From: a virus
Lineage: Duplodnaviria > Heunggongvirae > Uroviricota > Caudoviricetes
DNA: 64,000 nt
Direction: 5' to 3' (one strand)
Virus record (IMG/VR): IMGVR_UViG_3300031555_007715
The position numbers and the translations under genes were made by a program. Each line of letters opens with the position of its first letter. Positions within the stretch are counted from its first letter, which is position 1. Under the pieces are notes generated by a model. That model saw nothing but the letters and a program-made list of their open reading frames with translations, made no database searches and was not told where the DNA came from. Shown here one piece after another: positions 30,268 through 56,542 of this stretch.

Positions 30268-32175
30268 ATGCATATTAAGTGTAAAACTAATTATTCGTTT
30301 ATGGTTAAGAAATTTGACAAAAATAATAACAAGGAAACATATAATACATATATATATTGTCAACATTGTCATAATATGAATATGTATGTTGATTTCTTGA
30401 ATTATGAAGAAGATTCTGTTATGCCTGATAAAAAAATAGTTGATGACATTATTAATCATTTTTGGTACATAGATAATTATAATGAATTTTTAGTACAACT
30501 TTCACAAGAAAAAATAAGCAAAAAAAGTCTTGGTAGATATTTAAGTCCTAAGAAAAATTCAAAATGGGAAGATATGATTAATAAAATAAAATTCAAGCAT
30601 AGAACTAAAAAAGAAATTTTATTAACATGTCCCATTTGTGGAAAGATAATAAAAAATAGCGATATGATGGAATTATCTAGAAGCAATAGTTATATTACTC
30701 AAAATTCCTTTATAAAGGAATTTGATATAACAGAGAATGAAGATAAAATAATACTTAGTGTTTATATATATTCAATTTTTCCTGCGGTAGAATATAAAAA
30801 ATTAAAATATACAACAACCAATGTTAGATTTGTATTTAATAAAGACACAAGAAATATATATGCATTTCAACCAATTTGTTGTGAAACAAAAAAGCCTATT
30901 TATAAAGAGGCGAATCGAATTTTAAATATTACTTACTTATCGAATTCTGCTAATTTTTTAACATATTTACAGAGAATTGCTACAAATAATAAAGATGTAT
31001 TAATAAATTTATTGGGGTATTTTGAAAAATATTTTGAGAAGGATAGTGAATTGGATAAAAAAAATATACGATTTAAAGATTTATGTATGTTTTTCAGATA
31101 TCCTATGTACGATTTAAGAACCAGAAATAATATATCGCATATAACTAATATTTATTGTTCAAAAAAGCCATCTATAACACAAAAAAGAAAAGTAACCTTA
31201 CAGGAATTATATTTAATGCAGACTGACATAGATTTTATGTTTAAAATGTTAAAACAAAAAAAATGTCCATTAAAGAAAAAGTTCTTAAAATGTGTTTATA
31301 AAAATCCAACATATATATATCTATATTATTCATTAAAAAAAATGGGGTTCAAGGATTATAATGTTATTTTAGAAATTTTAGAAAATATGAAAGAACCATT
31401 AATTATTGAATTTTTAAGTTATTATGTTGGATTTAGTCCTGATACTTGGACTGAGTATAATTCTAACTTTATTAAAGAAATATCATCATTATTTAAGTAT
31501 TGTATTGAAAAAAAAGGCGAAGTTTATGTTAAAAATAGTTTATTATCATTTGATTCAAGAGAAAGTATCTATATTTATCAGGATATGATAAGTTTATACA
31601 CACAACTTTTAACTTATGAAGATTTTAATATGAATTCTTTTACTAATTTAGATTTTCGACACCTGCATGATACATTTTCATCATTAATTACAAAAATGAA
31701 GTTTAGTAATAGAAAAATTCCATATAAAGCGGATGATTTAAAGCTTAATGATAACATAAATAGTTATAATTTTGTTTTAGCTCCAGATACTTATTCTTTG
31801 GTTGATTGTGGTGAAAAAATGGGAATATGTGTTGGTGGGTATGGTGATAGGGCGGTTAGTAAATCATCAAACATTGTTTTTATTATACATAATAATAAAT
31901 TTGTGGGGTGTATAGAACTTGATAATTCTATGAAGACATTAAAACAAGCAAAGGCAAAATACAATAATTATTTAAGTGGTGATGTTGCTTGTGCTTTTAA
32001 AGAATGGGTTGAAAAATATAATATTAAGGCGGAATCTTGCTATGACTATACAGCGATTGCTGATAAAAAAGATAGAAATTGTTCATATAATTTTTGTGTT
32101 ACGGCGAGATTTGATGATGTTGACGAAATGAATAAGAATGTTGAAGTAAAATATGATTATAATATTATTAATTAA
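30268..32175 (+). CDS. PcfJ-like protein with N-terminal zinc ribbon (paralog 1 of 4)
   Basis: CQHCHN...CPICGK at the N-terminus. C-terminal MGICVGGY....NIVFIIH....CIELD motif shared with ORFs at 42408, 47129 and 54311. Confidence 0.65.
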   Translation: MHIKCKTNYSFMVKKFDKNNNKETYNTYIYCQHCHNMNMYVDFLNYEEDSVMPDKKIVDDIINHFWYIDNYNEFLVQLSQEKISKKSLGRYLSPKKNSKWEDMINKIKFKHRTKKEILLTCPICGKIIKNSDMMELSRSNSYITQNSFIKEFDITENEDKIILSVYIYSIFPAVEYKKLKYTTTNVRFVFNKDTRNIYAFQPICCETKKPIYKEANRILNITYLSNSANFLTYLQRIATNNKDVLINLLGYFEKYFEKDSELDKKNIRFKDLCMFFRYPMYDLRTRNNISHITNIYCSKKPSITQKRKVTLQELYLMQTDIDFMFKMLKQKKCPLKKKFLKCVYKNPTYIYLYYSLKKMGFKDYNVILEILENMKEPLIIEFLSYYVGFSPDTWTEYNSNFIKEISSLFKYCIEKKGEVYVKNSLLSFDSRESIYIYQDMISLYTQLLTYEDFNMNSFTNLDFRHLHDTFSSLITKMKFSNRKIPYKADDLKLNDNINSYNFVLAPDTYSLVDCGEKMGICVGGYGDRAVSKSSNIVFIIHNNKFVGCIELDNSMKTLKQAKAKYNNYLSGDVACAFKEWVEKYNIKAESCYDYTAIADKKDRNCSYNFCVTARFDDVDEMNKNVEVKYDYNIIN

Positions 32176-32237
32176 CTATATACAAATGTTTAAATATGTG
32201 ATATAATATTGTTAAATAATATAGAAGAAGATTATAT

Positions 32238-32990
32238 ATGTATAGAGATTATAAAATTGATACACACACTCATACATTAATAAGCGGTCATGCTTATAAT
32301 ACAGTAAATGAAATGATTTTAGCCGCTAATAAAAAAAATATGGAAGTGCTTTGTTTAACAGAACACGGTCCAATGATACCTGGTGGTCCTAATGCATACT
32401 ATTTTTCTAATTTAAGAATTTTACCAGATAATTATCATAGTGAATATGTACCACATGTTATTTTTGGTATGGAGGCGAATATTTGTAATTATAATGGTGA
32501 TACAGATTATGAAACCATTCATGATGATATAAATGATATCAAATATATCATAGCAAGCTTTCATACTGTTTGTTTGCAACCAAGCACTGTGGGAAATAAT
32601 ACAAATGCTTATATTGGTGCTATTAGAAAGCCTTATGTGACGGTTTTAGGACACATTGATGATGGCAGAGTGCCATGTGATTATGAACAAGTTGTTAAAG
32701 CTGCAAAAAAATATGATGTATTAATAGAGGTAAATAATTCTTCTAATTCTGTTAATTCATTCAGATTAAATTCTCAAAAAAATACGCTGGAGTATTTGCA
32801 GTTATGTAAAGAAAATGGCAATATGATTGTTCTTGGCAGTGATGCTCATTATGAAGGGGATATTGGTAATTTTTCAAATGTTATTCCTTTATTGGAAAAA
32901 GTTAATTTCCCAGAAGAACTGATTATTAATAGAGACACTAAATTATTTATTGACTTTATAGAGAAGAAATACAAAAAAAGATTTTTATAA
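32238..32990 (+). CDS. PHP-domain metal-dependent phosphoesterase
   Basis: N-terminal D-T-H-T-H-T and later H/D metal ligands. Confidence 0.7.
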   Translation: MYRDYKIDTHTHTLISGHAYNTVNEMILAANKKNMEVLCLTEHGPMIPGGPNAYYFSNLRILPDNYHSEYVPHVIFGMEANICNYNGDTDYETIHDDINDIKYIIASFHTVCLQPSTVGNNTNAYIGAIRKPYVTVLGHIDDGRVPCDYEQVVKAAKKYDVLIEVNNSSNSVNSFRLNSQKNTLEYLQLCKENGNMIVLGSDAHYEGDIGNFSNVIPLLEKVNFPEELIINRDTKLFIDFIEKKYKKRFL

Positions 32991-33043
32991 TAATAAGCCG
33001 CCCCTTGTGCATTAGGGACGGCTTACCTTTTTGTTGTTACATT

Positions 33044-34729
33044 TTAGCGAATTTTTACCTTGACGGCAGGAATTAAATTGTTTTCGGATTCAACATATGA
33101 AATTTCAATTTTTGCACCAATCTCGGCAAATACAATATTGAAATCAAGTGTGCTGTTAAAAACAAAAGTACAGTCTTTTTCAGCAATTTTTACATAATAT
33201 GTCGTTGTTCCTTCAACAACTTCACTACCAATATCTGTTATGGTTCCCGAAATGGTTGTTAACTCTTTGTTTGCCAACGAATCTGTTGTATTATGAGTTG
33301 AAAGAGACTTCATATAAGCAGTTTGTGCGTCTACCAATGTCTCTCCAAATCCATATTTCTGATAGTCACCATAAGCAACAAATGCATATCCCGCAAAATT
33401 GTTGTTAATGTCTCTCAGTAACATGAAATATGATTCAACACCTCCAACCTTAAGCGGGAGCGGATATCCTGCGGAGTATTGCATATTTCTAACTTTTCCT
33501 TCGATAGCTTCCTGTGCGCCTTTCTCAGAAATACCCTTTATAACATAATAGGTTATTTCTCCAGTTCTGGAGTTCATCATCATAATTCCATTGGAAGCGT
33601 TCTTCTGAGCAGTGTCTAATACTTTGTTTCGCATACCCGTATAATAATAGCATACGCCATCAATATAAACAACGTCCAAATCGGCAGTCGGTTCAATTAC
33701 TCCAATTTTTTTAATGAAGGAATTACCCCACCCCTTTGCATAAGCGCCATAAATTCTTGCGTATTCCTTAAAGAAACTTTCAGGATAAACACGGTCAACG
33801 TATTCAGGGATGTTGTCTAAGTCATAAAACTCACATTTCTTTGTTTTTGCGTTTAACTCAACAATTCCTGTTACTTCATTAAATCCATTAATGCCAATGG
33901 TGTCATATACGGTTGCAATAAAGAAAAACTCTCCATCATCATTAACCTCAGGAGAAATATCCGTTATACGGCCACCGATATTGTTTTTTCTCATATAATT
34001 GTAAATGATTCTTTTAGCATTGTCACCGAATGGAGCCTGTTCTGTTGTAAATAACGATTCTTCGTTAAATACGAGATTTCTGTTGTTTCTATTGATAATA
34101 AAGTATCCTTCATTACCAGTATCGCTGTCCCATGTAAATATACTTCTCGGCTCAAGCGGAACAACATAGAAAATATCATTTTTAATATTCTGTGTTGTAA
34201 CCTGTGACTCTAACAACTTAAATCTTGAACCCAATGATGGCTTAGCGCCCATTTCTGTTTCAGCCATTTTTAATGCCTCAGGAATTCCTACCAATGGCAA
34301 CTTGGATGTGTCATTGTTTTCACCGAGAAGGTCAGGAAAACAGTCTCCACCATTTTCACCTTCGACAACAGTTACCATTTTTTCAACCTTTGAATACCAC
34401 TTGTTTGCATTTACCATATTAGAGCTGGTGATTCCAGCTATAATAAATGCAACCCATAGAATAGCTGCACCGATAGGTAATATAAGCCAAAACGGTGATG
34501 CATTGACGTCAGCATCAAAAAAGTTGAATGAAACAATTGCCGCAATAGTTAAACCAATACAAATGGTCCACCAAACAGCAGGGCTGTGGAGGGTAAACGG
34601 AGTTTTAGCCAACCACAAAATCCATCCGCATACAGCGATAATTACAGCAAGAACCACAAACATAATTAATACGCTTATTGCGGAATCAGGCATATAATCG
34701 CTAATTCTTTTGTTTCTCGATTTACTCAT
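33044..34729 (-). CDS. polytopic membrane protein with large extracytoplasmic domain
   Basis: start reset to MSKSRNKR after GCGAAGGAGAA; 4-5 N-terminal TM segments. Confidence 0.55.
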   Translation of the reverse strand: MSKSRNKRISDYMPDSAISVLIMFVVLAVIIAVCGWILWLAKTPFTLHSPAVWWTICIGLTIAAIVSFNFFDADVNASPFWLILPIGAAILWVAFIIAGITSSNMVNANKWYSKVEKMVTVVEGENGGDCFPDLLGENNDTSKLPLVGIPEALKMAETEMGAKPSLGSRFKLLESQVTTQNIKNDIFYVVPLEPRSIFTWDSDTGNEGYFIINRNNRNLVFNEESLFTTEQAPFGDNAKRIIYNYMRKNNIGGRITDISPEVNDDGEFFFIATVYDTIGINGFNEVTGIVELNAKTKKCEFYDLDNIPEYVDRVYPESFFKEYARIYGAYAKGWGNSFIKKIGVIEPTADLDVVYIDGVCYYYTGMRNKVLDTAQKNASNGIMMMNSRTGEITYYVIKGISEKGAQEAIEGKVRNMQYSAGYPLPLKVGGVESYFMLLRDINNNFAGYAFVAYGDYQKYGFGETLVDAQTAYMKSLSTHNTTDSLANKELTTISGTITDIGSEVVEGTTTYYVKIAEKDCTFVFNSTLDFNIVFAEIGAKIEISYVESENNLIPAVKVKIR

Positions 34730-35905: not shown

Positions 35906-35921
35906 AATTATTTATCCTCCT

Positions 35922-36964: not shown

Positions 36965-37714
36965 ATGAATATATTTAAGAGTTCATACATAAGGGAAAAT
37001 ATAGAGAAAACTTTAAAAAAAACAAGATTTGAGCGGGAAAAAGAAATCTATAAAAATGGGATGAAAGAAAATTTAAGAGGCAAAATAGCAGAGAAGGTTA
37101 TTGTTGATTTATGTAATAAGAAAAATAAGACAAATGAAGAACAATATATATTAAAAAATATGTTTAAAAAAGATGTATGTTTTGCTGAGGTATTATCAAA
37201 TAAATATAAATCGGATATAAAAATTACATTTAAGGATGAAACTTGTTCTTATGTTAGCATAAAAAACACAGGTTGTTCGGTTGTTGGTGCATGTGAAGTT
37301 ACATGTGATAGTTTTAATAATTTTTTTAATAACAAAAAACTTGCCAGAGTTATGAAAAAATATGAATCTTTAAGATTTAATTTAACGGAGTTATTAAGTA
37401 AATATCAAAACGACTATAATTATTTAAAACAATTTTTATATAAAAATATAGATAAATATTTGAAGTTTATATTAACAGGAACAGGAGCTAATTTACCACC
37501 TGACTACATAATATTTATTGATAAAAAAAGTGATTACATATATTGTTCATCAATTGATGAATATATAAATAATTTAATTATATATTCGTCATTGGGGTCA
37601 CTGGAGTCACATACCATTATGACAAGAACGTCTGGAAAATATTGCAATTTAAAAATAAAAGTAATGAACCCAATAAAAAATAAAAAAATAATTGAAAAAT
37701 TTATTAATAAATAA
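36965..37714 (+). CDS. hypothetical protein
   Basis: 249-aa ORF; terminator at 37717-37747. Confidence 0.55.
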   Translation: MNIFKSSYIRENIEKTLKKTRFEREKEIYKNGMKENLRGKIAEKVIVDLCNKKNKTNEEQYILKNMFKKDVCFAEVLSNKYKSDIKITFKDETCSYVSIKNTGCSVVGACEVTCDSFNNFFNNKKLARVMKKYESLRFNLTELLSKYQNDYNYLKQFLYKNIDKYLKFILTGTGANLPPDYIIFIDKKSDYIYCSSIDEYINNLIIYSSLGSLESHTIMTRTSGKYCNLKIKVMNPIKNKKIIEKFINK

Positions 37715-37777: not shown

Positions 37778-38434
37778 TTATGGAGTTACCTCAGGGTCTA
37801 CTGGGTCAGTGTCTCCTGCTGCTGGTTCAGAAACGGAATCAGAACCTTCAACAGTAGCTTCTGGCTCAACGATATCAGTTAAAGAATCATATACGGACTC
37901 TTTTTCCTGAGCGGTATCAATACCGACCATAGTTTCGTTGGTAATATCATCTTCTACGGATGCAACAGAATCTTCTGCTTCAACATCAACGTTGCTAGTA
38001 ATAGTAAAATTGAACTGTCCAGCCCATTTACCCGCAGAAATGGATTCCATTTCAATAAGACCAGTTTCGGTCTGAGAACCAGTTTCTTTTACACCATTAG
38101 CATAAGAGAACTCGGTAGCAGAAGGAGTTACAGTAGTCTTAATGTCATCTTTACCAGCCTGCTTCATTACAAATTCAGCATCTGGAGTTACTGTGATAAT
38201 ATCGGTACCTGAGATGTTACCTTTAACATCTACTGAATAAGCGCCAGTACCAAGTTTACCGTCAAGGATAATAGTCTTTGGAATAGTTACAGTAAAAGTA
38301 CTACTCTGAGTAGCATATACCTCAACAGCGTTAGAACCTGTTGCCACTTCTGCGGCATTAACACCAACTGGTGCAGCCAAGGCAACAACCATTGCTCCAG
38401 CCAAAAGAGGAGCTATAATTTTGTTTAATTTCAT
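37778..38434 (-). CDS. secreted protein carrying a conserved approximately 110-aa beta-rich domain plus acidic tail
   Basis: signal peptide. The domain YATQSSTFTVTIPK...GNISGTDIITVTPD...SISAGKW...FNFTITS is shared with 39734 and 62280. Confidence 0.6.
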   Translation of the reverse strand: MKLNKIIAPLLAGAMVVALAAPVGVNAAEVATGSNAVEVYATQSSTFTVTIPKTIILDGKLGTGAYSVDVKGNISGTDIITVTPDAEFVMKQAGKDDIKTTVTPSATEFSYANGVKETGSQTETGLIEMESISAGKWAGQFNFTITSNVDVEAEDSVASVEDDITNETMVGIDTAQEKESVYDSLTDIVEPEATVEGSDSVSEPAAGDTDPVDPEVTP

Positions 38435-39529: not shown

Positions 39530-39733
39530 AAGTCTTCTCCTTTTTCGTATTTTATCATTGAAGATATTAATTATATATCACACAATTAGTCATATTTCAA
39601 TACATTATGTCATTTTTAAGAATATTTTGTCGAATTATAATTGATATTTTTTTTATTAAATGTTATATTATAAGTGATTAATAAGATTGTAAATATTAAT
39701 GGTTATAAAATAACTCACTTTTTAGGGGGTAAT

Positions 39734-41377
39734 ATGAAAAAATTTATTGCATGCATTATTTCATTATTTCTTATGACTATTATTATTTTCATAAATAAAG
39801 CCCCGATTGAGGCATTAGTTACTTATACTGTAACATCAGATGTTTATGCAGCCCAGAGTAGCTCTTATACGATAAAAATTCCTAAAAAAATATCATTATC
39901 AGGAAACGATGGAACGGCTGTTTATGGAATATCTTTAAAAGGAAATATATCTGGAACAGATGTTATAAGTGTTGTGCCAAATGAGAATTTTATAATGTCT
40001 CAGAGGGGAAAAGACGATGTTATTGCTAATATTACTCAGGATAAAACAGATTTTACTTATGCTATGGGCGTAAGGCCAGATGTTGATGTCGTTTATGTTG
40101 GGAATATAAATATGGAATCAATTTCTGCTGGTAAGTGGTATGGAACCTTTAATTTTGATATATATAGTTCTATTGAAATAACCAAGGACTCGATTTCATC
40201 TTCCACGTCAGATATTTATGGAGATAATATATTAGGAAGAGATGATGAACAAAATAAAACAACTGAATATAAAGAATTGTTATATTATCATTATCATGAT
40301 TTTGTCGAAAATCAAACAAAAGAACCAAATTGTACAGAAGATGGTTATATAAAGCATGTTTGTTCGTCATGTGGAACGGTTCATTTAGATATTATTGACG
40401 AAACGGGGCATAGCTATATAACAACTGTTATTGAAAGTACTTGCTGTGATGGTGGATATACGCTTCATGAGTGTACGCTTTGTGGACATTTGTATATTGA
40501 TAATTATACTAATCCGTTAGGACATCAATATAATGAACAAAGCGGTATTTGTGGGGATTGTGGAGAAAGTCAGGCAGGAGTATATGATTCAAATGGTTTG
40601 TTACAATCATGGGAAAAGTTAGTGAATAATAATATTTTAGCCGTTGATGAGAATGGTGTATTATATAATCCTAATTCAACAGAATCTTTTATACTATCAA
40701 ATAATATGCATGAAAAACTTATTATAGATAGTGGAGTAAAAGTTATTAAGGAAAGAACGTTTGACACTTGTGTATCCCTTAAAGAAGTTGTAATGCCTGA
40801 TACAATAGTAGAAATTGAACCTTATGCTTTTGTTCAATGTTCATCATTAAAAAATGTTGAATTTTCTAATAATCTTGTAAAAATAGGAGAGGGAGCATTT
40901 GAAAGATGTACGACTCTTGATGAGGTTAAGTTACCATCTTCTGTTGAACAAATAGACGAGAGAACTTTTTTTGCTTGTAGTTCACTTAAAAATGTTGATA
41001 TGAGTGATTGTAAAGTAACTAAATTAAAAGAGTCTACGTTTGAAAATTGTAATACATTATTAAATATTCTTTTTCCAGAATGTTTAGTTTCAATTGAAAA
41101 TAGAGTATTTTATAATTGTAGTTCGTTAACTATTGTAACAACAGGCTTAAACGTATCTGTTATAGGGGAATCGGCATTCGAGTCATGTGCATCTCTTGTG
41201 GAGTTTAATATATTAAACGGTAATTTTTCATATATAGGAAAAGATGCCTTTAAGAATTCTCACATATTAGGAAAAGTATTATTAAAAGGGATTGTGTTTG
41301 AAGATAGAGATGAATTTAATAATTTTGTTTATCAATCTGGGTTATCTCATACATCAAAGATATGGTATATGCAATAA
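39734..41377 (+). CDS. secreted surface protein: shared N-terminal domain, Cys-rich region and BspA-type leucine-rich repeats
   Basis: start reset to MKKFIACIIS. LRR units of the form F..C.SLK.V..P..V..I...AF..C. Confidence 0.65.
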   Translation: MKKFIACIISLFLMTIIIFINKAPIEALVTYTVTSDVYAAQSSSYTIKIPKKISLSGNDGTAVYGISLKGNISGTDVISVVPNENFIMSQRGKDDVIANITQDKTDFTYAMGVRPDVDVVYVGNINMESISAGKWYGTFNFDIYSSIEITKDSISSSTSDIYGDNILGRDDEQNKTTEYKELLYYHYHDFVENQTKEPNCTEDGYIKHVCSSCGTVHLDIIDETGHSYITTVIESTCCDGGYTLHECTLCGHLYIDNYTNPLGHQYNEQSGICGDCGESQAGVYDSNGLLQSWEKLVNNNILAVDENGVLYNPNSTESFILSNNMHEKLIIDSGVKVIKERTFDTCVSLKEVVMPDTIVEIEPYAFVQCSSLKNVEFSNNLVKIGEGAFERCTTLDEVKLPSSVEQIDERTFFACSSLKNVDMSDCKVTKLKESTFENCNTLLNILFPECLVSIENRVFYNCSSLTIVTTGLNVSVIGESAFESCASLVEFNILNGNFSYIGKDAFKNSHILGKVLLKGIVFEDRDEFNNFVYQSGLSHTSKIWYMQ

Positions 41378-42407: not shown

Positions 42408-44414
42408 CTAGTTACTTATATTGTTTAATGCATGAATCTTGTCAGTAGAACAGCCAAGTCTAATTTTTTTACAAATGTATTTTGCAAATTTTATTAGCTC
42501 TTCGTCATAAACAGTTCTATTGTTGGAATAATAGCACTGTCCTAACCCAGATTTAGTGCATTCGGCTGTTATAAAGGATGTTGTAGGTGTATCTTTTTTT
42601 CTAATAAAGAAGATGACGCAATAACCATTTTTAACTCTATAAGGATAAGAACCAACACAGTTATGTTGTTGATTTCCTTCATTGATAAAATCAGCTTCGG
42701 AAGATGGGAATATAATAGTATATTCTTCAAACAATTTAGGAATACCTACTGGTAATTCTTCTTTGTCTTGTAAATTTGGTAAAACATATCTTTCACATTC
42801 CTTTGATATTGTTTCAAGTTTTGCATCTTCTAGTTTTCTGTTTCTTTCTTTAAAGAAATTTGTCATTTTGTCGTGTTGTTCTTTTATACTTTTGGGATAT
42901 TTGTCTGGTTCTATTTGACACATATCGCACATTGTTAAGTAGTCACTCATATAGTCAACCGTTTCTGATATTTCTATTTTATACTGCTTAGATTGTTTCA
43001 TAATATAGTTGTATAAAGTTTCTGGTGAATATCCAAATTTTAAGATATTACCTATATCCTTACAATCACTTTGACTGTTAATCCATGAATAATTGAATGA
43101 TTCTGTGAAATTATCGAAATTTTCTTTCGATATTTTTGTTAATTCATAGAAATCTCTCCAATAAAAATATTCTTCTAAGGTTGCATTCTTTTTCATTAAA
43201 TATTCACCAATATAAACAGGAATTCTCAACGCACTTTTACCCTTAGAAGTTTCACTGTCAATTAATCCGCTTAAAGACTTTACTTTTTGTTGAATATCTG
43301 ACTTTGAAAAACTATTTTTAATACTATCATATACAGTAAAGAAAAGTCTTGGCTGTCCCATTTTAACAATTTGTTCCATAACAGGGTACATATTAAATAT
43401 ACATAAGAAAATAATAAAAAACATTTCCAAGCTATATCTTTCTGGAGAATATTTTAAAACAGTCTGAAATCCCGACATTTTAAGAAACTTTTCATGTTTT
43501 AATGCAAAATCATCAAAATCATCGCAATCTTTATATGTAACCTCTGGAACGAATGTGATGTTTTTACTATTAATGTTAAAGAAGTCAAATGTGTCACAAG
43601 GCGTTATTTTAGTTTTTTGTTGGCGATAACATTGTATATTTCCGCCAATAATATGTTCAAGGACGGCGTCAATGTAGTATTTATCGTTTATAACATTATT
43701 TTTAACAGACATTTCTCTTGTTATTTTATATATTATAATGCCGTTATCTACACCATAAACATAAAACATTGATTTTCTAAATGTTTGACTAAGGTCTCTA
43801 ACACTTGTTGAATAACTATATGACTGGTAATTTGTTTCTTTATATTTTTTATATTCACTTGAAACAATACGTTGTGATACGGTTGCATTACAATAAGGGC
43901 ATATTGTTTGATACTGTTTTGGTTGAACTGACAGTTTATGACACGCAGGACAAACTGTTCTAAATATATTAGGATTGCCGTAAGTATCTTTTATGCCAGA
44001 AAAATCATCACCTACGATAATAGCAGGAAAGTTCATTTTTTCTGAAAATACTTTTTTAACTTCATCAACTATTTCATTAGGAATATTTTTATCGATTATT
44101 TCTTTGTAGTCATAATCATATTTATATTCTTCGGGGATAATTAAAAGTTTTATTTCATGTTCCTGAATATTGGTTGAAACAACTTCTTCATTTAGTGAAC
44201 TAATACATTTTACTAAAGATTTTTCTCTTGTAAAAGCAATATCAATAGGTTTTTGATATGTTGCACATTTGTTGTTTTTAATTAAATCGTACTCATCTTT
44301 AGACAAAGTACGATATTTGTATATAACAGATATCTCATCATTTACTTTTTTCATAATCATGTATCGATATCCGTAACTTCCATAGTCTTTTTTTCTTGTT
44401 ACAATTGCCTCCAT
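42408..44414 (-). CDS. PcfJ-like protein with zinc ribbons (paralog 2, close to paralog 3)
   Basis: CPACHK...CPYCNA. C-terminal EGNQQHNCVGSY...CVIFFIRKK...ITAEC. Confidence 0.65.
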   Translation of the reverse strand: MEAIVTRKKDYGSYGYRYMIMKKVNDEISVIYKYRTLSKDEYDLIKNNKCATYQKPIDIAFTREKSLVKCISSLNEEVVSTNIQEHEIKLLIIPEEYKYDYDYKEIIDKNIPNEIVDEVKKVFSEKMNFPAIIVGDDFSGIKDTYGNPNIFRTVCPACHKLSVQPKQYQTICPYCNATVSQRIVSSEYKKYKETNYQSYSYSTSVRDLSQTFRKSMFYVYGVDNGIIIYKITREMSVKNNVINDKYYIDAVLEHIIGGNIQCYRQQKTKITPCDTFDFFNINSKNITFVPEVTYKDCDDFDDFALKHEKFLKMSGFQTVLKYSPERYSLEMFFIIFLCIFNMYPVMEQIVKMGQPRLFFTVYDSIKNSFSKSDIQQKVKSLSGLIDSETSKGKSALRIPVYIGEYLMKKNATLEEYFYWRDFYELTKISKENFDNFTESFNYSWINSQSDCKDIGNILKFGYSPETLYNYIMKQSKQYKIEISETVDYMSDYLTMCDMCQIEPDKYPKSIKEQHDKMTNFFKERNRKLEDAKLETISKECERYVLPNLQDKEELPVGIPKLFEEYTIIFPSSEADFINEGNQQHNCVGSYPYRVKNGYCVIFFIRKKDTPTTSFITAECTKSGLGQCYYSNNRTVYDEELIKFAKYICKKIRLGCSTDKIHALNNISN

Positions 44415-44738
44415 CAAACCATCTCCCTTTTTACATATTTTTATATTATAATTATACCATAAATTATTCTTTTTGTCACTAAAAAAATGCTTTTTTACAC
44501 AAAAAAAGGGTCGCTATTTCTAGCAACCCCAAAGAACTAAGCCGTGAATAACAGAGATGAATTTGGTGGACAATTCCTATCTCGGAATCGTCCTTTTCTT
44601 CTTGTTATTGTTATTCGATGGAATATTCGATGGAATCATCTTCCCCGCTACGGCTAAAGACTTTATGTTTTTATTATATAACAATATTTTCATAAAGTCA
44701 AATGAAAGTTCCCTATTGAGTAGTTTTTTGTTTTATGG

Positions 44739-45181: not shown

Positions 45182-45844
45182 TTATTCTTTATTATTTCTT
45201 TTATCTTTGATATCTCTACTTTCAATAATCATTTTACGATATTCTTCATAGTTGTCGAAATTTATATATTCACCGTTATATACATCAAAACATTTTTCAC
45301 CATTTGCCATTTCATATTCATTTGCAGATACGATAATATATATGTCTTTTCTATAAGAATTTTCTAGAATTGTTTTAAAAAGCCCTTCTTTTAAGTCAAT
45401 GATGTTATCTATACTCAAACCACTGTCTACTGCATCAAATAAAATCCATCTTTCGTTATTAACAACTTTTTCGTTCTCGGGCAAAAAGTCTTTACTTATT
45501 CCCGTTTCGATAAAACGTTTTAAATTTTTTGCAATGTGCATTATATTTAAGACAATGTTTTCTCCTTCTGATGAACACATACTTTCAGCAAGAAAGCTAA
45601 AATCTCCCCTAAAACAACTCGCAGAGCGGGCATTAGAGCCGCCGTCATTTAAATTATCAAATAAAACAAAAGGAATTTCTTCTTTTTTTAGTTCTCTTTT
45701 AATTTCTTTGATTAGCGATGTTTTTCCTATGCCGTTACATCCAACTAAAACAGTAACGCCATCTTTTATTGTAATACAATCTTTTTTGAAGACATTTTCT
45801 CCCTCAACGTGAGGGTCTTTTATTAGTGAAAATTTTCTACTCAT
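45182..45844 (-). CDS. P-loop ATPase (AAA/ABC-like)
   Basis: Walker A GCNGIGKTS and Walker B ILFDAVD. Confidence 0.55.
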   Translation of the reverse strand: MSRKFSLIKDPHVEGENVFKKDCITIKDGVTVLVGCNGIGKTSLIKEIKRELKKEEIPFVLFDNLNDGGSNARSASCFRGDFSFLAESMCSSEGENIVLNIMHIAKNLKRFIETGISKDFLPENEKVVNNERWILFDAVDSGLSIDNIIDLKEGLFKTILENSYRKDIYIIVSANEYEMANGEKCFDVYNGEYINFDNYEEYRKMIIESRDIKDKRNNKE

Positions 45845-45904: not shown

Positions 45905-46396
45905 TTATACTCCTAATAATTCTTTAATTTGAATTTCTGATATTGGTGTGTAGTTGATTTGTTCTACGGATACACAAAAATATCTGTTGCCATCTTTCCA
46001 TTTTCTATTTAACAATCCATAATTAAATCTGTGTAAATGGCCATGGATATTAAGATATGGAATTTCAGGTGGCATATACCCAATTGGTTCATGGGATAAC
46101 CACAAATACCCCACCATTATAGGGTGTGTATTAACCTCAATGCTAGGAAATTTCTTTCTAATTTCATTAGCATCATCATGATTTCCTGTTACAATGATAA
46201 TTTTTCCTTTTAAATGTTCTAAAATTTCAATATCCCCAATATCTCCACAAAGATATACTTCATCATCATCATTAATTGTTGAGTTCCAATTGTTGATAAT
46301 AACGCTTCGCATGTCTTCAACATCTTTGAATGGTCTATGCTCATATGTTAAAATATTCTCATCTTTATTGTGGATATCTGCAATAAAATAACGCAT
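45905..46396 (-). CDS. calcineurin-like metallophosphoesterase
   Basis: ADIHN, CGDIGD, GNHDD and GHLH motifs. Confidence 0.7.
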   Translation of the reverse strand: MRYFIADIHNKDENILTYEHRPFKDVEDMRSVIINNWNSTINDDDEVYLCGDIGDIEILEHLKGKIIIVTGNHDDANEIRKKFPSIEVNTHPIMVGYLWLSHEPIGYMPPEIPYLNIHGHLHRFNYGLLNRKWKDGNRYFCVSVEQINYTPISEIQIKELLGV

Positions 46397-46972: not shown

Positions 46973-47128
46973 TTAAATCACTCCTTTGTTATTTGATAAG
47001 TTAATTATAACACATTATATGGTATTTGTCTACGCTTATAATGTTAAATTTAAAATATGTTTTTGTTCATGCTATAATATTATTGTTAGTTGTTGTTTAA
47101 GTTTTCAACTTTACGAAGGAGGTAGAAA

Positions 47129-48907
47129 ATGATTGAAAAACTGAACCGTGCATTTGTGAGAAAATTGTTTCTGGATAATTGTACAGAACCAATTGTCACA
47201 CTTGTAAAACCGACCCTTAAGGGAGAGACATACTCTTCTTATGGTGGTGGTACTAGAGGAAATGTTGTTATTTCTTCGAAAAAGATTATTTTGATGTGTC
47301 CTTGCAATGGCTTTGAAAAGCAGGAACTATCGGGAAATGCCGTCGAACAATGTGTTTGTCCTCTTTGTAATCAGGGATTTAATTATTGGATGAGACGTGC
47401 AAGAGTAATTTTATCCGCAGATACCGTAAAAGATGCGGAAAAGAAGTTTGCGGAAATTAACAACAAAAATGCCGCAAGATGGCAACAGGGAAATTACATT
47501 GTTTCATTTGGCGGGTACAGAACATCAACTGATGGTAAGCCTAAGTCAAGAGAAAAGTTGTTACAGACGTATTACGTTAAGGAAAAACTTGATGGAACGT
47601 GTGGTATCGATATTGTTCGTCTTACTATTAATGCAGTTGTTGATGATGGTAATATTACCTTTGAAGAGAAGTATGATAAGTGGTGTGAAGTTGTACCTGG
47701 TCAGAAAATTGCCGCGTATAAGATTACCAAGGCAAGAGGTCAGGAAGAAATCGATGTTTTTGATGCTTTTCATATTACGTCAGATAACGTTACCAACGAT
47801 GAGTGCGTTTACTATGAGGGAGCAACGTCAATGATTGATTTTATTGCGAATAATCCTGAATTTGCAAAACGTACAGGTCTTGATGAGTTGGTAATGAATT
47901 ATTTGCCGACGTCTCTTATTCCCGAAAACTCGTTGTTCTTATTGTACTTATATCTTTACAGTAAATACCCTGTTGTTGAATTACTTGTAAAGATGAAGTA
48001 TTATGGTTTGGTGTTTGGGCTGATGGATAGAATCTGCTCAGCATACAGGCGCGAGGATATTAGAGCTTCGGTTTCATCGCTCAACAAGTTATTAAATCAG
48101 ACTTCTAAGGGAAGTGCGAGTTTAAGTATTCCGTCATATATCGGTCAGTACCTTAATGCAAAGGGTGCAAAGATTGATGAGTATTTTTCATGGGTTGCCC
48201 TAAACGAATACGAAAGTATTTCTAAGGAAAACTTTGAAAAGATTATCTCAAGCGAGGCGTACTGGTATATTAATTACTATAATCAGCTTGGACAATTACC
48301 TAATATTATTAAATACGGGTATACTTTGAATCAGGTTATGAAGTATATTATGAAACAGTATTCGAATGATAATAAGTGGAATATTCGTCAGAATAAGGTT
48401 GACTATCGTACCCCTCACCAGATTACCAGTATTATTAATCTTTGGAAGGACTACCTTGAACATTGTGAACTCATGGATGTTAAGCCTGATAAATTCCCAC
48501 AGGATGTAAAAAAGGCTCATGATGATATTATATCCGCATACAAGGCAGTTAAAGATAAGATGATTGACAAGGAACTGGCACAAATTGCGGATAAATATTC
48601 TTCGTATAAGACTACGTCTAAGCATTATGATATTGTTGTTCCTCGTAGTGTTAATGATTTCGTAACAGAGGGTAATAACCAGCATAATTGTGTTGGTGGA
48701 TATGTTGAAAGTGTTAGAAAGGGTAGATGTAGGGTTTTCTTTATTAGAAAGATTGATGATATGGAAACATCGTACATTACAGCCGAATGTAATAAGCTGG
48801 GGCAATTAGCACAGATAAAGTACAGAAACAACCTTCCTGTTACTAACTACGATGAGGTAGAATACGCAAAAGCATTTTGCAAATTCATTATGTCAAAGGG
48901 TTGGTAA
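47129..48907 (+). CDS. PcfJ-like protein with zinc ribbon (paralog 3)
   Basis: CPCNG...CPLCNQ. C-terminal EGNNQHNCVGGY...CRVFFIRK...ITAEC. ACGAAGGAGGT leader. Confidence 0.65.
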   Translation: MIEKLNRAFVRKLFLDNCTEPIVTLVKPTLKGETYSSYGGGTRGNVVISSKKIILMCPCNGFEKQELSGNAVEQCVCPLCNQGFNYWMRRARVILSADTVKDAEKKFAEINNKNAARWQQGNYIVSFGGYRTSTDGKPKSREKLLQTYYVKEKLDGTCGIDIVRLTINAVVDDGNITFEEKYDKWCEVVPGQKIAAYKITKARGQEEIDVFDAFHITSDNVTNDECVYYEGATSMIDFIANNPEFAKRTGLDELVMNYLPTSLIPENSLFLLYLYLYSKYPVVELLVKMKYYGLVFGLMDRICSAYRREDIRASVSSLNKLLNQTSKGSASLSIPSYIGQYLNAKGAKIDEYFSWVALNEYESISKENFEKIISSEAYWYINYYNQLGQLPNIIKYGYTLNQVMKYIMKQYSNDNKWNIRQNKVDYRTPHQITSIINLWKDYLEHCELMDVKPDKFPQDVKKAHDDIISAYKAVKDKMIDKELAQIADKYSSYKTTSKHYDIVVPRSVNDFVTEGNNQHNCVGGYVESVRKGRCRVFFIRKIDDMETSYITAECNKLGQLAQIKYRNNLPVTNYDEVEYAKAFCKFIMSKGW

Positions 48908-49138
48908 AAACAAGGGCTTCGCTAAATATAGCGGAGCCCGTTCTTTTTAATAAAACTCAAGGTCATGTTTTTCTTTATCAAAAGAATAAATTGTTTCTGT
49001 TGCTTTTTTATTATTTTCTCTTTTCTTCTTTTTTTCTTTTTCTTTTTTATAAGCTTGTAAGCTTACAATATTATTTTTTTTCATATGCATCTCTCCCTTA
49101 AAATTCATATTGTATTTCTTGATATTATTATACCACAT

Positions 49139-52633: not shown

Positions 52634-53332
52634 ATGATTGACATTATTAATGAGATTTGCAGAACTCTCAATATTACCTATGATGAGTTAATGAAACTGA
52701 ATGCTAAGGAAATTGAAGAGTTAGCAAACAAAAGGCAAGAAGAAGAAATTGCCGAACGAATTAAGAATGGCGAGAAAGAAATTAACATGTTAAAGCTTAT
52801 TGTTAAAGATTGGGATGTATTAGCTTCTTATATTGGAGAAGAAGAACTTATCAGACAATTTGCTAAACATCGTAAGCTTAGCGATTATTTTACATCGACT
52901 TACAGTCTTCCTGATTGCCTCAAGCATCTGTCGGAAGAACAGCAGGAACTTTTTAGGGTTTCATCGTCTGGTAGTAGATATTATATTTTGTCTACTTATT
53001 ACAGCGAAGATGCTATAAAAGACGCATTGTTATTGTGGAATAAAAATCTTTCTTGTTACTCTTTGACTATGTACCGTTATGACGGTATTAACACAGAGGT
53101 ATCTTTTTCTATTGAGATGGAAAACTTTATGGGTGATAAAAAGACAAATTATCACCTAAGTACGACGTTGTTTTCTGTTTTGCAAAGGGATATTAATATG
53201 ATTATTAACGATGTTCTTGACAGGATGGACTTTCATAAAATTGTTAATAAGGAATCTGATAAGTATCAACGTGTAAATCAGTTTTTCCTTTCTGATGAGT
53301 GGAAGCATTTTGAGAAAATTGTTAAGTCGTAA
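52634..53332 (+). CDS. hypothetical protein
   Basis: ACGAAGGAGGT leader. Confidence 0.5.
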   Translation: MIDIINEICRTLNITYDELMKLNAKEIEELANKRQEEEIAERIKNGEKEINMLKLIVKDWDVLASYIGEEELIRQFAKHRKLSDYFTSTYSLPDCLKHLSEEQQELFRVSSSGSRYYILSTYYSEDAIKDALLLWNKNLSCYSLTMYRYDGINTEVSFSIEMENFMGDKKTNYHLSTTLFSVLQRDINMIINDVLDRMDFHKIVNKESDKYQRVNQFFLSDEWKHFEKIVKS

Positions 53333-53500
53333 GGACGGGGACTTCTCCATATTGGGGGAGTCCTTTGTTTTATTAAATGTTTTAAATAAATGATATAATA
53401 TAAATATGCAGTTTTATGCTTTTAAGTATAGATGGCAAACATTTTTACAAAAAGAACTGGTCACAAAAAGTACATTATTGGAAGAAATGGAGGAGATTCT

Positions 53501-54229
53501 ATGAATAACATTATTAGTGTAATCAGTGATATTTTCACAAATGATTTGTTGGTCTTTTTGTTTAGGGCTTTATGTGCCGTATGTTTTGCTCTTATTATTG
53601 GCTTAGAAAGAGAGCTGACGGGGCATAAGGGTAGTATTAAAGTAAATATTTTAATTGCCCTTGGGTCTTGCGTATTTTGTTCCTTTGAGCTACTTTTAGG
53701 ACTTGCAGAAGCAAGAGTTTCGGCTAATATTACGACTGGTGTTGGTTTTTTATGTGCTGGATTTATTATGAAGACTGGTACATATGTAAACGGCTTGTCT
53801 ACAGCGGCAACTCTTTGGTGTAGTGCTGGTGTTGGTATGTTAACGGCAAGAGGTTATATTGCCGAAGCATTTATCATTAGCATTCTGTTATTTGCATTGA
53901 ACCTTATAATTTCGAAGCTTTTCAAAAATATTAAGCCTCTTAAGGGGTTTGATGACTCAAAGAAAAACATTACATACAAGTATAACGTTGTGTGTTTGAA
54001 GAGTGATGCGGAAGAGGTTAGGAAATCTTTTATTAAAACAATTTCACCTATAAGCGGCGTATCTCTTGAATCTATTGTAACAAAAGGGATAACAGAAGAT
54101 AAAGTTAGAGTTGTTGTTGTTATTAATATGGACAATCAGGACTTCGTTGTTGCGGAAGATATTTCGTCAAAGATTGATTCAATTAAAGGCGTATTGTCTT
54201 CTGGATGGGAACAGGAATACGATAATTAA
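53501..54229 (+). CDS. mgtC: MgtC/SapB family membrane protein
   Basis: IIGLERELTGHKG motif; start reset to the ATG after AATGGAGGAG; terminator at 54235-54272. Confidence 0.7.
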   Translation: MNNIISVISDIFTNDLLVFLFRALCAVCFALIIGLERELTGHKGSIKVNILIALGSCVFCSFELLLGLAEARVSANITTGVGFLCAGFIMKTGTYVNGLSTAATLWCSAGVGMLTARGYIAEAFIISILLFALNLIISKLFKNIKPLKGFDDSKKNITYKYNVVCLKSDAEEVRKSFIKTISPISGVSLESIVTKGITEDKVRVVVVINMDNQDFVVAEDISSKIDSIKGVLSSGWEQEYDN

Positions 54230-54310
54230 TTGTGTGGCGGTTGTTGTTAAAACAGCCGCCTTTTTTGATAAAAAAATGCACCCGCTGTGAGGCAGGTGCA
54301 TCATGAGACG

Positions 54311-56542
54311 TTAATCAAAATAAAATGGAATAGGATTGTTATCAATGTCTACATTTTGGGGCGGTTTAATGTCCCAATTAATTGTAGCCCCATCAAGAAA
54401 CACTTTTTCAAAACTATTTTTGTCGGCATAAATTTTATACGACTCAATAAATTCACTCGTGGCTCTTTCAAACGGTTCATCACTTGGATTAATTTCACTT
54501 AGTTGATTATTGCGAGAATCATAAGCGTCTTTAAAATGTATCTTGTTTTCGATAAGCCACTTTACAAGAGCAGGTTTCTTTTCTTGTCGTAAACGGTCAT
54601 TACAATAATCTTTTGCTTGAATTAACTCGTACTCATAAGGTGAAATTTCACGTAGTTCTATACAAGCAGCAAGTTCATTTTTACTATCAAGCATAAACAC
54701 AATATTGCAATTTTTTGCAAAAGCCTTTTGGTCATAAGAGCCGACGCAAATATGCATTTTTTGCCCTGTATCTTTCATCTCGTCAGAAGTTTTTGCAAGA
54801 ACAAAGGAATATCCTTCAACATTACCACAGACAGAAAGTTCTTCTTTTACATACGGGATATAAAATCCCCGTGTTTTTATTTGGTCTAATACTAGCGATA
54901 ATCTGTCGTGTATTTGCTTAAAGTTTCCTTTAAATACTTTCTTTAACTCTTCTTTGTTTTCTGGTATCATTTTTTGTTCTCTCAATCTGTCGAACATGTA
55001 ACACATGTCTTTAAAAAGCATAAAGTTTATATCATTCACGTTTTTTGACAAAGAATCAAAAAAATCTTTTTCAGGACGCACCGAGCAATAAGTTTTTATA
55101 AACTCGATTATTTTGCAATAATATGTCCAGTTGTTATTCGATGGCAAAATGCTACCAAAAGAGAAAAGCTGTACTTTTTCCTTAAGAGATGGATTCAGGT
55201 CTGAAAAATATTTACACATGCAATCAATGTTTGTTAATCCTACGGAACAAAGTCTGACATATAAAAATGCAATAGCGGGATTTTTTAAACACATTTTTCT
55301 AAGAACTTTTCCTTTTACATTCAGTTTCCTTAAGAATTTTTCGAAAAGCAAAGAATCGTCTTTCATTCTTGCAAATTTCTTTAGTGTTTCTTTTTCAAAA
55401 TTATCAAGCGATATTTTTAAAAATTCTTCATTGTAACTATTTCCGTATCTATTAATCAGACACAACATTCGCATTGCGTCACTCGAACAAGAAACATAGT
55501 CTAATAGGTCTTTAATGTTAAGAAATGAGTTCTTTTTTTTGCATATTGCTTTTGCTACATTGATAAACATCTCATCAGTGAGATTTATTCCTGTCATGGG
55601 ATATTTTTGGTACGTGATATTGATGATTCGTGGTGCGCCTTTTTGCAACGGTTTTTTATCATCAAGTGAAATAGCACGAAATGCATATGTCTGGCCTGTC
55701 GTAACATTAAAAGTAATTCTTTCATTACTGGTAACACAATGTATTTTTCCATAAGGATTTGGCAATAAGTGTTTGTTAACAACAGATAAAACGATGGTGT
55801 TAGAACCTTCGTCATTGAATATATCGTAACAAATAGGTATCTTATTACTATAAATCCAATCAGAATCTCTACTTAATGACCGAACAGATAAACCGTCAAA
55901 TGAACAGATAGAACTATTTGAATTATTTGCACCAAATACTTTGTAACAAGAAGGGCATCGATAAATAAATTTACCATCCTCGTTTTCAAAAACATCCAAA
56001 AAGTATTGTTTTTCGCCTCTATCCCAGAAATCAGACATTATATCAATTATTATTGTTTTTGGAGTATCAAGGGCGTCTTTTCTTAAGGCATAAGCAATAA
56101 TGTTATCCTGTTCTTCTTTTAATACATCTTCTAGAGTTTTGTTGTGCATAGGAACAAGATAGTCTAACTCTTCATTTTGCTTTTTACAGAAAGGACATTG
56201 TATAATGTGAGTTGCCAATTTTTTGTAAAATAAGTAATTCCCATCATCTTTTGCTTTCTTGCTTATTGAAAATTTAAGCTTTTTTTCGTTAAACTTAATC
56301 ATTTTTTCTTGTTTTGATAACATCTTTTGATGTACCGCATGCATTCTTGAATAACGATAGTTAAGCTGTCTGTTTTTTGGATAGGTCCCTAAAAAGTCGT
56401 CGGTCAGGATATTATTCTCTAATTGATATCTTCCATTAAGTATGGCAAGTACCTTTTTAATGCTGAAATAATTACAGTATTCTTCTATGTTTATGTCTCG
56501 GTACACAGTAAATACATAAATTTCATTCTCGTTTAAGTTCAT
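54311..56542 (-). CDS. PcfJ-like protein with zinc ribbons (paralog 4, closest to paralog 1)
   Basis: CPFCKK...CPSCYK. C-terminal QKMHICVGSY...CNIVFML...ACIEL. GCGAAGGAGGTTG leader. Confidence 0.65.
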   Translation of the reverse strand: MNLNENEIYVFTVYRDINIEEYCNYFSIKKVLAILNGRYQLENNILTDDFLGTYPKNRQLNYRYSRMHAVHQKMLSKQEKMIKFNEKKLKFSISKKAKDDGNYLFYKKLATHIIQCPFCKKQNEELDYLVPMHNKTLEDVLKEEQDNIIAYALRKDALDTPKTIIIDIMSDFWDRGEKQYFLDVFENEDGKFIYRCPSCYKVFGANNSNSSICSFDGLSVRSLSRDSDWIYSNKIPICYDIFNDEGSNTIVLSVVNKHLLPNPYGKIHCVTSNERITFNVTTGQTYAFRAISLDDKKPLQKGAPRIINITYQKYPMTGINLTDEMFINVAKAICKKKNSFLNIKDLLDYVSCSSDAMRMLCLINRYGNSYNEEFLKISLDNFEKETLKKFARMKDDSLLFEKFLRKLNVKGKVLRKMCLKNPAIAFLYVRLCSVGLTNIDCMCKYFSDLNPSLKEKVQLFSFGSILPSNNNWTYYCKIIEFIKTYCSVRPEKDFFDSLSKNVNDINFMLFKDMCYMFDRLREQKMIPENKEELKKVFKGNFKQIHDRLSLVLDQIKTRGFYIPYVKEELSVCGNVEGYSFVLAKTSDEMKDTGQKMHICVGSYDQKAFAKNCNIVFMLDSKNELAACIELREISPYEYELIQAKDYCNDRLRQEKKPALVKWLIENKIHFKDAYDSRNNQLSEINPSDEPFERATSEFIESYKIYADKNSFEKVFLDGATINWDIKPPQNVDIDNNPIPFYFD

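Follow-up and report, generated by a model that had tools for sequence, protein, structure and literature searches.

The Pfam family PF14284 is named after PcfJ of the Enterococcus faecalis plasmid pCF10 and is described by a conserved core motif of the 'H-C-V' type; its definition in Pfam and its annotation by NCBI precede this work. AcrIIA9 carries the Pfam PcfK domain (PMC6739104) and a PcfJ-like domain has been reported in the target protein of a diversity-generating retroelement (DGR) of an organism of the Candidate Phyla Radiation (CPR) (PMC5758913), while PcfJ and PcfK are unmentioned in a paper on polyvalent proteins (PMC5512222). Here, a stretch of 64,000 nucleotides (nt) of an uncultivated low-GC mobile element (virus record IMGVR_UViG_3300031555_007715; the whole stretch is referred to as the window) was analyzed and found to encode five members of the PcfJ family, designated A to E (Table 1), which fall into two anciently separated subfamilies and have a single C-terminal module in common. 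The original prediction, made from the letters of the DNA, had described A to D as four diverged paralogs of a family with zinc ribbons and a PcfJ-like signature.

Membership of the family was defined as a whole-protein score above the gathering cutoff of PF14284, 25 bits, and all five proteins pass it. The four reading frames of the original prediction are present with the coordinates and lengths listed in Table 1, and their assignment as PcfJ-like is borne out by the scores of the Pfam hidden Markov model (HMM). The count of four, however, was too low. When the four proteins were compared with the window by tblastn, E was uncovered outside positions 30268-56542 (E value of 1e-19 with C as the query); it reaches an E value of 3e-36 with a local core HMM, and this HMM finds exactly five PcfJ copies in the window. 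A phmmer comparison of PcfJ from E. faecalis pAT40a-b with the reading frames of the window yielded matches to E (5.9e-16), C (1.3e-13), B (1e-07), D (5.5e-06) and A (3.5e-04); with PcfJ from Streptococcus equinus as the query the match to A was merely marginal (E value of 0.021). On sequence comparison all five are genuine, intact members of the family. The start codon of B, ATG at position 44414, agrees with the gene call of 668 amino acids (aa) on metagenome contigs, and the exact D and E proteins are encoded on 23 and 24 contigs, respectively, among those read. B and C match the PHROG families phrog_8470 and phrog_3169, and all PHROG families matched by A to D are devoid of an assigned function.

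The pairing of A with D and of B with C, originally proposed from their central regions, was fully reproduced: identity amounts to 27 % over 504 aa between A and D (E value of 5e-31) and to 32 % over 530 aa between B and C (E value of ~1e-69). Similarity across the pairs is weak (E value of ~4e-4) and resides in the C-terminus alone. Comparison of the two subfamily profiles by hhalign resulted in a probability of 97.3 % and an E value of 2e-11 over 138 columns with nothing outside these, and the N-terminal and central regions of the A/D and B/C/E proteins could not be aligned in this profile-profile comparison. It is therefore one module of ~140-160 residues that the subfamilies have in common and not the whole architecture, and the hhalign values also mean that the similarity is not compositional. 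A low-complexity artefact, considered at the outset as a possible explanation, is ruled out by these values and by the Pfam E-values. A word-indexed homolog search with the A/D subfamily returned D itself alone; an exhaustive HMMER search was used instead, in which the A/D profile matched 1,173 cluster representatives at E values of 1e-3 or below and 68 at 1e-30 or below, many of them full-length proteins of 580-770 aa.

Residue conservation was assessed in an alignment of 75 sequences covering both subfamilies, with the numbering of C. Nine positions are conserved to at least 97 % (D441, H464, G515, C521, V522, Y525, E553, Q562 and N568), and H464 is followed by Asp in 83 % of the sequences. 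The five proteins of the window retain all nine, save for E, which has Ser at the Gly position. The original prediction had put forward [M/Q]-H-x-C-V-G as a common motif, with the Cys and His of H-x-C-V-G-x-Y as candidate invariant residues. The Cys is in fact invariant, as are the Val next to it and the subsequent Tyr, such that C-V-x-x-Y is universal. The His adjacent to the Cys, on the other hand, is shared by four of the copies (B, C, D and E) but is replaced by Gly in A, which reads K-M-G-I-C-V-G-G-Y, and is not conserved across the A/D subfamily.

Structures of C and D were predicted with AlphaFold2 from separate alignments of 29 sequences for C (predicted local distance difference test, pLDDT, 87.8; predicted template modelling score, pTM, 0.71) and 46 sequences for D (pLDDT 82.8, pTM 0.73). 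In line with the expectation of a shared C-terminal fold, both models exhibit the same layout, that is a β-rich N-terminal region with zinc knuckles, an all-helical middle, a long hairpin of helices on which the conserved D and H(D) are located, and a terminal α/β core with the topology β-α-α-β-β-β-α. A complete GNAT fold proceeds in the order β1-α1-α2-β2-β3-β4-α3-β5-α4-β6 and carries the motif A loop, Q/R-x-x-G-x-G/A, between β4 and α3. The predicted core would correspond to the N-terminal arm plus α3 of this fold, in other words to a truncated GNAT-like fold. The acetyl-CoA (CoA, coenzyme A) pyrophosphate loop of motif A has left no trace between β4 and α3, where C reads YRNNLPVTN and D reads YCNDRLRQEKK; an Asn is the sole conserved residue of this loop, and there is no Gly. 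Since B, C and E end directly after α3 and possess nothing from β5 onward, they are without the β5-α4-β6 half from which the CoA cleft is built. None of the Pfam Acetyltransf_* models matched the copies even at an E value of 1, the family profile did not retrieve any GNAT chain from the PDB sequences at E values up to 10, and a Foldseek search of the PDB with the whole protein gave nothing significant. Its top match, chimallin, was dismissed (E value of 0.17, probability 0.04, TM score 0.09). As judged from the strand limits of both models, the invariant Glu in β3 and the invariant Gln in β4 are direct cross-strand neighbours, while the invariant Cys is placed at the N-terminus of α2 and the invariant Asn after β4. 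In these models, we infer, the conserved residues would form a single pocket.

The N-terminal regions differ between the copies. All four proteins of the original prediction were said to start with CxxC...CxxC zinc ribbons. Conserved knuckles do exist in A to D, but in B and D they are located further inside the protein, the ribbon beginning past residue 110. The predicted knuckles form a compact ribbon in B (C155/C158 and C172/C175) and a split ribbon in A (C31/C34 and C121/C124) and D (C116/C119 and C196/C199, with a helical insert), in which ~80-90 residues separate the two knuckles; those of C are C57/C59 and C77/C80, and E has no N-terminal zinc ribbon. The four ribbon cysteines are invariant in 46 sequences of the A/D type and at least 90 % conserved in 29 sequences of the C type, and predicted strands flank them in the AlphaFold2 models. 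Pfam zinc-ribbon models gave no significant match to the N-terminal pieces of the copies, nor did Pfam as a whole to the isolated N-terminal and central pieces. Together with the empty Foldseek search this means that these regions are without recognisable relatives. The N-terminus of the C type produced a weak profile match to the zinc-ribbon-bearing OB domain of Teb1 (3u50_C, E value of 0.035).

The related element L059 encodes three PcfJ copies within 12 kb in the order HD...PcfJ-PHP-Band_7-Band_7 that is also found in the window. Its D-like gene (738 aa) is 34 % identical to D, its A-like gene (640 aa, with conserved PHP and Band_7 context) 43 % to A, and its C-like gene (593 aa) 60 % to C, the orthologs of C overall showing 51-60 % identity; at least two PcfJ copies are present in a further related element, L057. 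As the orthologs occur in the same gene order, the paralog set must be ancestral to this group of elements. The neighbouring genes (HD, PHP, Band_7 and MgtC) are 63-74 % identical between the window and L059, above the 34-60 % of the PcfJ orthologs, and within the orthologs the core is 57-76 % identical as compared to 18-41 % for the N-terminal zinc/β region. Hence, the PcfJ genes evolve faster than their surroundings and their N-termini fastest of all. A recent duplication, gene conversion or DGR origin was ruled out: no DNA repeat of at least 35 nt in the window involves any PcfJ copy, and A, C and D are each closer to their L059 ortholog than to any paralog in their own genome. Neither a DGR reverse transcriptase (among 25 of the 35 Pfam families matched by reading frames of the window) nor template and variable repeats were found. 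Identity to the window amounts to 99.1-100 % in six metagenome contigs, a range also given for contigs from ~20 samples, and the PcfJ copies are invariant across ~20 independent metagenome contigs. Hypervariability at the population level was likewise rejected, all differences between contigs lying outside the PcfJ genes; in the one divergent contig (L001) all 152 of them are located at 62500-63300. The description of the family as fast-diverging thus applies between related elements and fails within the population, where the copies are identical. Similarly, faster orthologs with highly divergent N-termini partly fit the notion of a diversifying family, but each copy represents an old lineage that has orthologs of its own, and the set is not an array undergoing local diversification.

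PcfJ genes are widespread on other mobile elements. A tblastn search with C identified 363 places in 362 phage records, and a search with a Listeria phage protein 535 places in 535 records, comprising Staphylococcus, Bacillus, Enterococcus and Listeria phages of the Herelleviridae type. Plasmids contributed 575 places in 560 records, 516 of them from Enterococcus. The 40 loci inspected in IMG/VR mostly contain one PcfJ copy, with the exception of L037 (five), L038 (four), L030 (three) and L034 (two), whose arrays consist of shorter genes on one strand and are found on contigs of 64-155 kb. The copy-number survey suggested with the original prediction thus gives a single copy in the 535 phage records and three to five in some viral contigs, which makes the expansion observed here unusual, yet not unique to this element.

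In each of the six plasmids examined (L007, L008 and L060-L063; four from Enterococcus and one each from Streptococcus equinus and Clostridium botulinum) a gene annotated as 'Cas9 inhibitor AcrIIA9 family' is situated directly upstream of PcfJ, and in five of them the stop codon of this AcrIIA9/PcfK gene overlaps the PcfJ start. DpnD/PcfM, SSB, thermonuclease, toxin-antitoxin, LPD1/SNF2 polyvalent and relaxase genes are further neighbours on plasmids. The PcfK/AcrIIA9-PcfJ pairing is the main contextual evidence linking the family to establishment or anti-defence genes. The 149 reading frames that flank PcfJ in viral contigs include DUF3102 (8), PcfK (4), rolling-circle Rep (4) and VRR-NUC (3) proteins, HNH proteins, and single cases of RecU, RusA, Lar, a Tad2-like protein and an N6-methylase. 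A family of ~400-aa proteins that do not match Pfam is encoded directly downstream of PcfJ in 10 of the 40 viral contigs (Table 1), and a DUF3102 protein occupies the same position in other loci (L013, L016 and L018). Listeria phage LP-124 encodes an 819-aa PcfJ protein two genes upstream of its DNA polymerase I genes, with NAD-salvage-type genes on the other side, and in Staphylococcus phage Stau2 the PcfJ gene belongs to an early/auxiliary region among genes for RNase H, RNA ligase and nucleotide metabolism.

Next to E in the window, a reading frame of 420 aa with the motif CSCGCSC...CPNC (2678-3940, minus strand) begins 10 nt after that gene, and the two are kept together on metagenome contigs. 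Homology of this protein to PcfJ proteins or to Pfam, PHROG and PADLOC families was not detected. It was discarded as a sixth, core-less member of the family (hhalign probability of 7 %, with an alignment at the Cys motif alone), and it proved unrelated to the ~400-aa partner family of the viral contigs.

What do these proteins do? We tentatively favour, as a possible rather than an established explanation, that they are effectors of establishment or counter-defence, in which a common Cys-bearing core is combined with a variable zinc-ribbon targeting region and the copies are aimed at different targets. The conserved pocket would confer one biochemical activity common to all members of the family, probably a Cys-dependent transfer or hydrolysis or else tight binding of a small ligand or nucleotide, and probably something other than classical acetyl-CoA chemistry. 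The fastest-evolving parts, that is the zinc-ribbon/β-rich N-terminus together with the helical middle, may select the target. Such proteins would act early after DNA entry, with each of the five copies adapted to a different target in the host. A bolder extension, which we consider unlikely as it stands, is that the PcfJ core constitutes a new enzyme class, built on a truncated GNAT scaffold which no longer binds CoA and operates through its invariant Cys together with His, Glu, Gln and Asn. It would then serve Gram-positive phages and plasmids as a general effector of counter-defence, in the plasmids jointly with PcfK/AcrIIA9, and huge phages would have expanded it into a panel of paralogs directed by their N-termini at different immune proteins or nucleic acids.

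Several observations weigh against the proposed role in establishment or counter-defence. The clustering of the conserved residues in the models rests on topology, namely strand limits, and not on atomic coordinates. An NCBIfam scan of the copies returned nothing, PADLOC defence-protein models matched none of the five, a PcfK-like reading frame is not apparent in the window (best phmmer E value of 0.48, no match in a Pfam batch scan), and no known anti-defence gene was recognised adjoining any of its PcfJ genes. The suggestion of a role in host takeover or counter-defence thus draws its plausibility from contexts elsewhere (AcrIIA9/PcfK, Lar, Tad2-like protein, methylase and a Twort-like early region), and nothing in the window adds to it. 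PcfJ neighbourhoods are also rich in replication and recombination genes and fit a competing explanation equally well. The searched literature contains no experiment or functional statement on PcfJ, in agreement with the original statement that no function is known. The identity of the copies in all population contigs gives no sign of ongoing diversification, and promoter-like matches are barely enriched in this DNA of 30 % GC (111 versus 94 expected). Finally, the phage nature of the element is likely but unproven: no capsid, portal, terminase or other virion gene was seen in ~80 kb of it, INPHARED gave no megablast match, and a near-identical contig was not found in IMG/VR.

The competing explanation just alluded to is that PcfJ is an accessory factor for replication, recombination or DNA establishment, whose N-terminus binds (single-stranded) DNA and which is not aimed at host immunity. 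It is consistent with the position of the gene in LP-124, with the Rep, VRR-NUC, RecU, RusA and HNH neighbours in viral contigs and the SSB, thermonuclease and relaxase neighbours on plasmids, with the weak match of the C-type N-terminus to Teb1, and with the near-universal, single-copy occurrence in Herelleviridae that would be expected of a core function. We regard it as somewhat unlikely, because five very different, separate units are hard to explain on this basis, because E is entirely without the zinc-ribbon region, and because evolution of the N-terminus far outpaces that of the neighbouring genes. Should the core instead be a working GNAT-type acyl-CoA acyltransferase that acts on a host or phage protein, tRNA or small molecule, like the toxins TacT and AtaT or like protein acetyltransferases, the richness of the element in tRNA and RNA-repair genes would make sense, and so would the alignment of D over up to 120 residues with extra C-terminal elements. 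The missing Q/R-x-x-G-x-G/A loop, the loss of the CoA-cleft half from B, C and E and the lack of an acetyltransferase match in the Pfam and PDB sequence searches render this improbable.

Huge phages and plasmids often carry exclusion or anti-competitor systems, and the paralogs could be weapons of this kind, serving superinfection exclusion or defence against other phages or plasmids and not directed at host immunity. Their predicted independent expression, their fast evolution, the presence of accessory neighbours (an MspI-like endonuclease and an AriA/GajA-like ATPase) and the PcfJ-like domain reported in the DGR target of a CPR organism (PMC5758913) are in keeping with this idea. It nevertheless appears to have little going for it: PADLOC recognises none of the copies, the window has neither DGR components nor template/variable repeats, and the coupling to an anti-CRISPR-family gene on plasmids points toward counter-defence. 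That the paralogs are merely relics of old duplications or acquisitions, devoid of a common or current function and retained because a large genome tolerates them, might be concluded from their extreme divergence, from the loss of the His beside the Cys in A and from that of the N-terminal region in E. We consider this highly improbable in view of five intact reading frames that retain the universal core residues (with Ser at the Gly position in E), of syntenic orthologs for three copies in a relative whose neighbour genes have diverged by ~30 %, of identical copies in all population contigs and of predicted promoters and terminators that belong to several of the copies individually.

These predicted signals are compiled in Table 1 together with the coordinates of the PcfJ genes. 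From their arrangement, at least B, C and D would be separate single-gene transcription units. Terminator-like sites are abundant in the window (28 versus 6.5 expected), and many genes on both strands, B among them, are preceded by a recurring motif that resembles a promoter, TTGACA...ATACCATA...TGGTATAAT. In the form TTGACA...ATACCATA...TG(G)TATAAT this motif makes up the repeat families D2, D3 and D4, with copies of ~40-54 nt, and probably represents the host-σA-type promoters of the element. A leader sequence originally ascribed to three of the copies is not distributed in this way: its exact form, ACGAAGGAGG, precedes C alone, GCGAAGGAGG precedes D and E, and A and B have neither, their ribosome-binding sites being different. 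The motif, of which the window contains 8 occurrences, is a strong Shine-Dalgarno site of the ordinary kind.

Table 1. PcfJ-family genes of the window, their modules and predicted regulatory sites, and loci with the ~400-aa downstream family
Feature	Position	Strand	Details
A	30268..32175	+	635 aa, A/D subfamily; Pfam PcfJ 32.1 bits; phrog_16315
A PcfJ module	residues ~432-590, nt 31561-32037	+	core KMGICVGGY, Gly replacing His
A core residues	H467, C521, E550, Q560, N566		all universal residues retained (75-sequence alignment)
B	42408..44414	-	668 aa, B/C/E subfamily; Pfam PcfJ 72.0 bits
B PcfJ module	residues ~481-653, nt 42456-42974	-	
B promoter (predicted)	44451..44479	-	σ70/σA-like GTGACA-17-TATAAT, extended -10 TG; repeat family D2 copy 44440-44481
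Terminator upstream of B (predicted)	44507-44530	-	B promoter just downstream
C	47129..48907	+	592 aa, B/C/E subfamily; Pfam PcfJ 82.5 bits; 27 homologs
C PcfJ module	nt 48416-48904	+	helical hairpin 431-489, then core
C core (AlphaFold2 model)	β1 500-503, α1 508-518, α2 525-530, β2 534-541, β3 550-555, β4 560-564, α3 574-590		
C promoter (predicted)	47049..47078	+	σ70-like TTTAAA-18-TATAAT with TG; consensus match only
C terminator (predicted)	48914..48939	+	intrinsic, 7 nt past stop; 11-bp stem, 7 GC pairs, T-run
D	54311..56542	-	743 aa, A/D subfamily; Pfam PcfJ 51.1 bits; phrog_16315
D PcfJ module	residues ~505-672, nt 54527-55030	-	plus C-terminal tail of low confidence
D promoter (predicted)	56610..56637	-	σ70-like TTCAAA-16-TATAAT with TG
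D terminator (predicted)	54275..54302	-	intrinsic, directly past D stop
E	3951..5294	-	447 aa, B/C/E subfamily; Pfam PcfJ 78.4 bits; outside 30268-56542
E PcfJ module	residues ~285-447, nt 3954-4442	-	core LHHCVKTY
Promoter-like repeats	1132, 2052, 9905, 15616, 27955, 30139, 44440, 46990, 49113, 49624, 59995		
~400-aa downstream family	L015, L017, L020, L021, L022, L026, L027, L029, L032, L039		

The window has a GC content of ~30 %, is 85 % coding with genes on both strands and contains five tRNA-like genes. Its gene set comprises RtcB with a cREC receiver domain, SmpB, thymidylate synthase, DHFR, PnuC, a NadR-like enzyme, two radical-SAM proteins, three metallophosphoesterases, an SPFH pair, MgtC, OGG, YpsA and a BspA-type leucine-rich repeat protein; the 67 reading frames other than PcfJ yielded matches to 34 PHROG families. 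RuvB, Thg1 and ADP-ribosylglycohydrolase are encoded directly outside its left end (contig L053), and contigs related to the window encode giant lysozyme/NlpC-P60 proteins. More than 20 contigs of ENA, JGI and Logan assemblies contain the sequence, with a maximum length of 135.7 kb, and no virion genes were seen in the flanks reached via contigs that overlap the ends of the window. A huge phage that infects a low-GC Gram-positive (Firmicutes) host is the most likely source of the sequence. A rich set of RNA-repair and translation-rescue genes is typical of very large phages, and here such a set is formed by RtcB, cREC and SmpB (172-498, 23376-24743 and 59256-59705), several tRNAs and Thg1 outside the window. 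A 'tRNA-???' with a four-base anticodon (gcgt), reported by ARAGORN at 2571-2642 (plus strand), overlaps the start of the reading frame 2613-3008 and adjoins a cluster of tRNA-Phe, tRNA-Gln and tRNA-Ile(tat) at 1266-2417; it could be a tRNA of the frameshift-suppressor type or an artefact.

Three reading frames at 62280-63821 (minus strand), 37778-38434 (minus strand) and 39674-41377 (plus strand) form a second paralog family of proteins with signal peptides. They have in common an N-terminal module with the motif Y-A-[TA]-Q-S-S, and the first two share a repeat of 300 nt with 71 % identity. Since all differences of contig L001 fall inside the gene at 62280-63821, the segment 62500-63300 is either variable in the population or mosaic at the end of the contig. 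A protein with an MspI-like restriction endonuclease domain is encoded at 36965-37714 (plus strand; Pfam 31.5 bits), and an adjoining methyltransferase was not noted. Between B and C, a small P-loop ATPase of 220 aa with weak resemblance to the N-termini of the defence ATPases AriA, GajA and PtuA adjoins a metallophosphoesterase (45182-45844 and 45905-46396, both on the minus strand).

The present analysis adds to the description of the family a fifth copy in the window, the two-subfamily structure, the conservation of the paralog set in related elements, the prediction of a GNAT-like fold without CoA motif, a corrected list of invariant residues and the strict coupling of PcfK with PcfJ on plasmids. 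PcfJ is present in essentially all phage records of the Herelleviridae type that were found (535) and in plasmids of enterococci by the hundreds, there with translational coupling to the AcrIIA9-family gene, and the element studied here demonstrates that a single genome can hold five copies which have diverged deeply and are each kept under constraint. A testable fold hypothesis, a list of residues for mutation, a domain model and a candidate partner, PcfK, are thereby at hand. Should the role in counter-defence prove true, few uncharacterised anti-defence modules of Gram-positive mobile elements would be as widespread as PcfJ; otherwise, the gene is still an early one that is conserved in phages of the therapeutic type (Staphylococcus K-like and Listeria P100-like).

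In comparison with the GNAT superfamily, the predicted PcfJ core follows the same β1-α1-α2-β2-β3-β4-α3 order but lacks the CoA loop of motif A and any match at the sequence level, has forfeited β5-α4-β6 in three copies, and is marked by invariant Cys, Glu, Gln and Asn residues that differ from the GNAT signature. The PcfJ proteins of plasmids, likewise encoded on mobile elements, share with the copies of the window the C-V-x-x-Y core and the upstream H(D), and the one from the C. botulinum plasmid is of similar length (648 aa). However, the Pfam model leaves the long N-terminal zinc-ribbon/β regions of four window copies uncovered, and plasmids and cultured phages contain one PcfJ per record whereas the element has five from two subfamilies. 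The PcfK/AcrIIA9-PcfJ pair of Gram-positive conjugative and mobilisable plasmids features the same PcfJ domain, but the PcfK partner is absent from the window and accounts for just 4 of the 149 PcfJ-neighbouring reading frames of viral contigs. Members from Herelleviridae (Listeria P100 gp65, LP-124 gp069 and Staphylococcus Stau2 ORF161) are large proteins of 680-820 aa with a C-terminal PcfJ module as well and are encoded in early/replication regions of large Firmicutes phages; they occur strictly once per genome, and their last ~150-300 residues alone align with the window copies, at 22-33 % identity. The IMG/VR arrays L037, L038, L030 and L034, on large phage-like contigs, like the window contain several diverged PcfJ genes. 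There, genes for proteins of 250-410 aa are lined up near-tandem on one strand within ~15 kb, while in the window proteins of 447-743 aa are encoded on both strands over 52 kb with unrelated genes between them.

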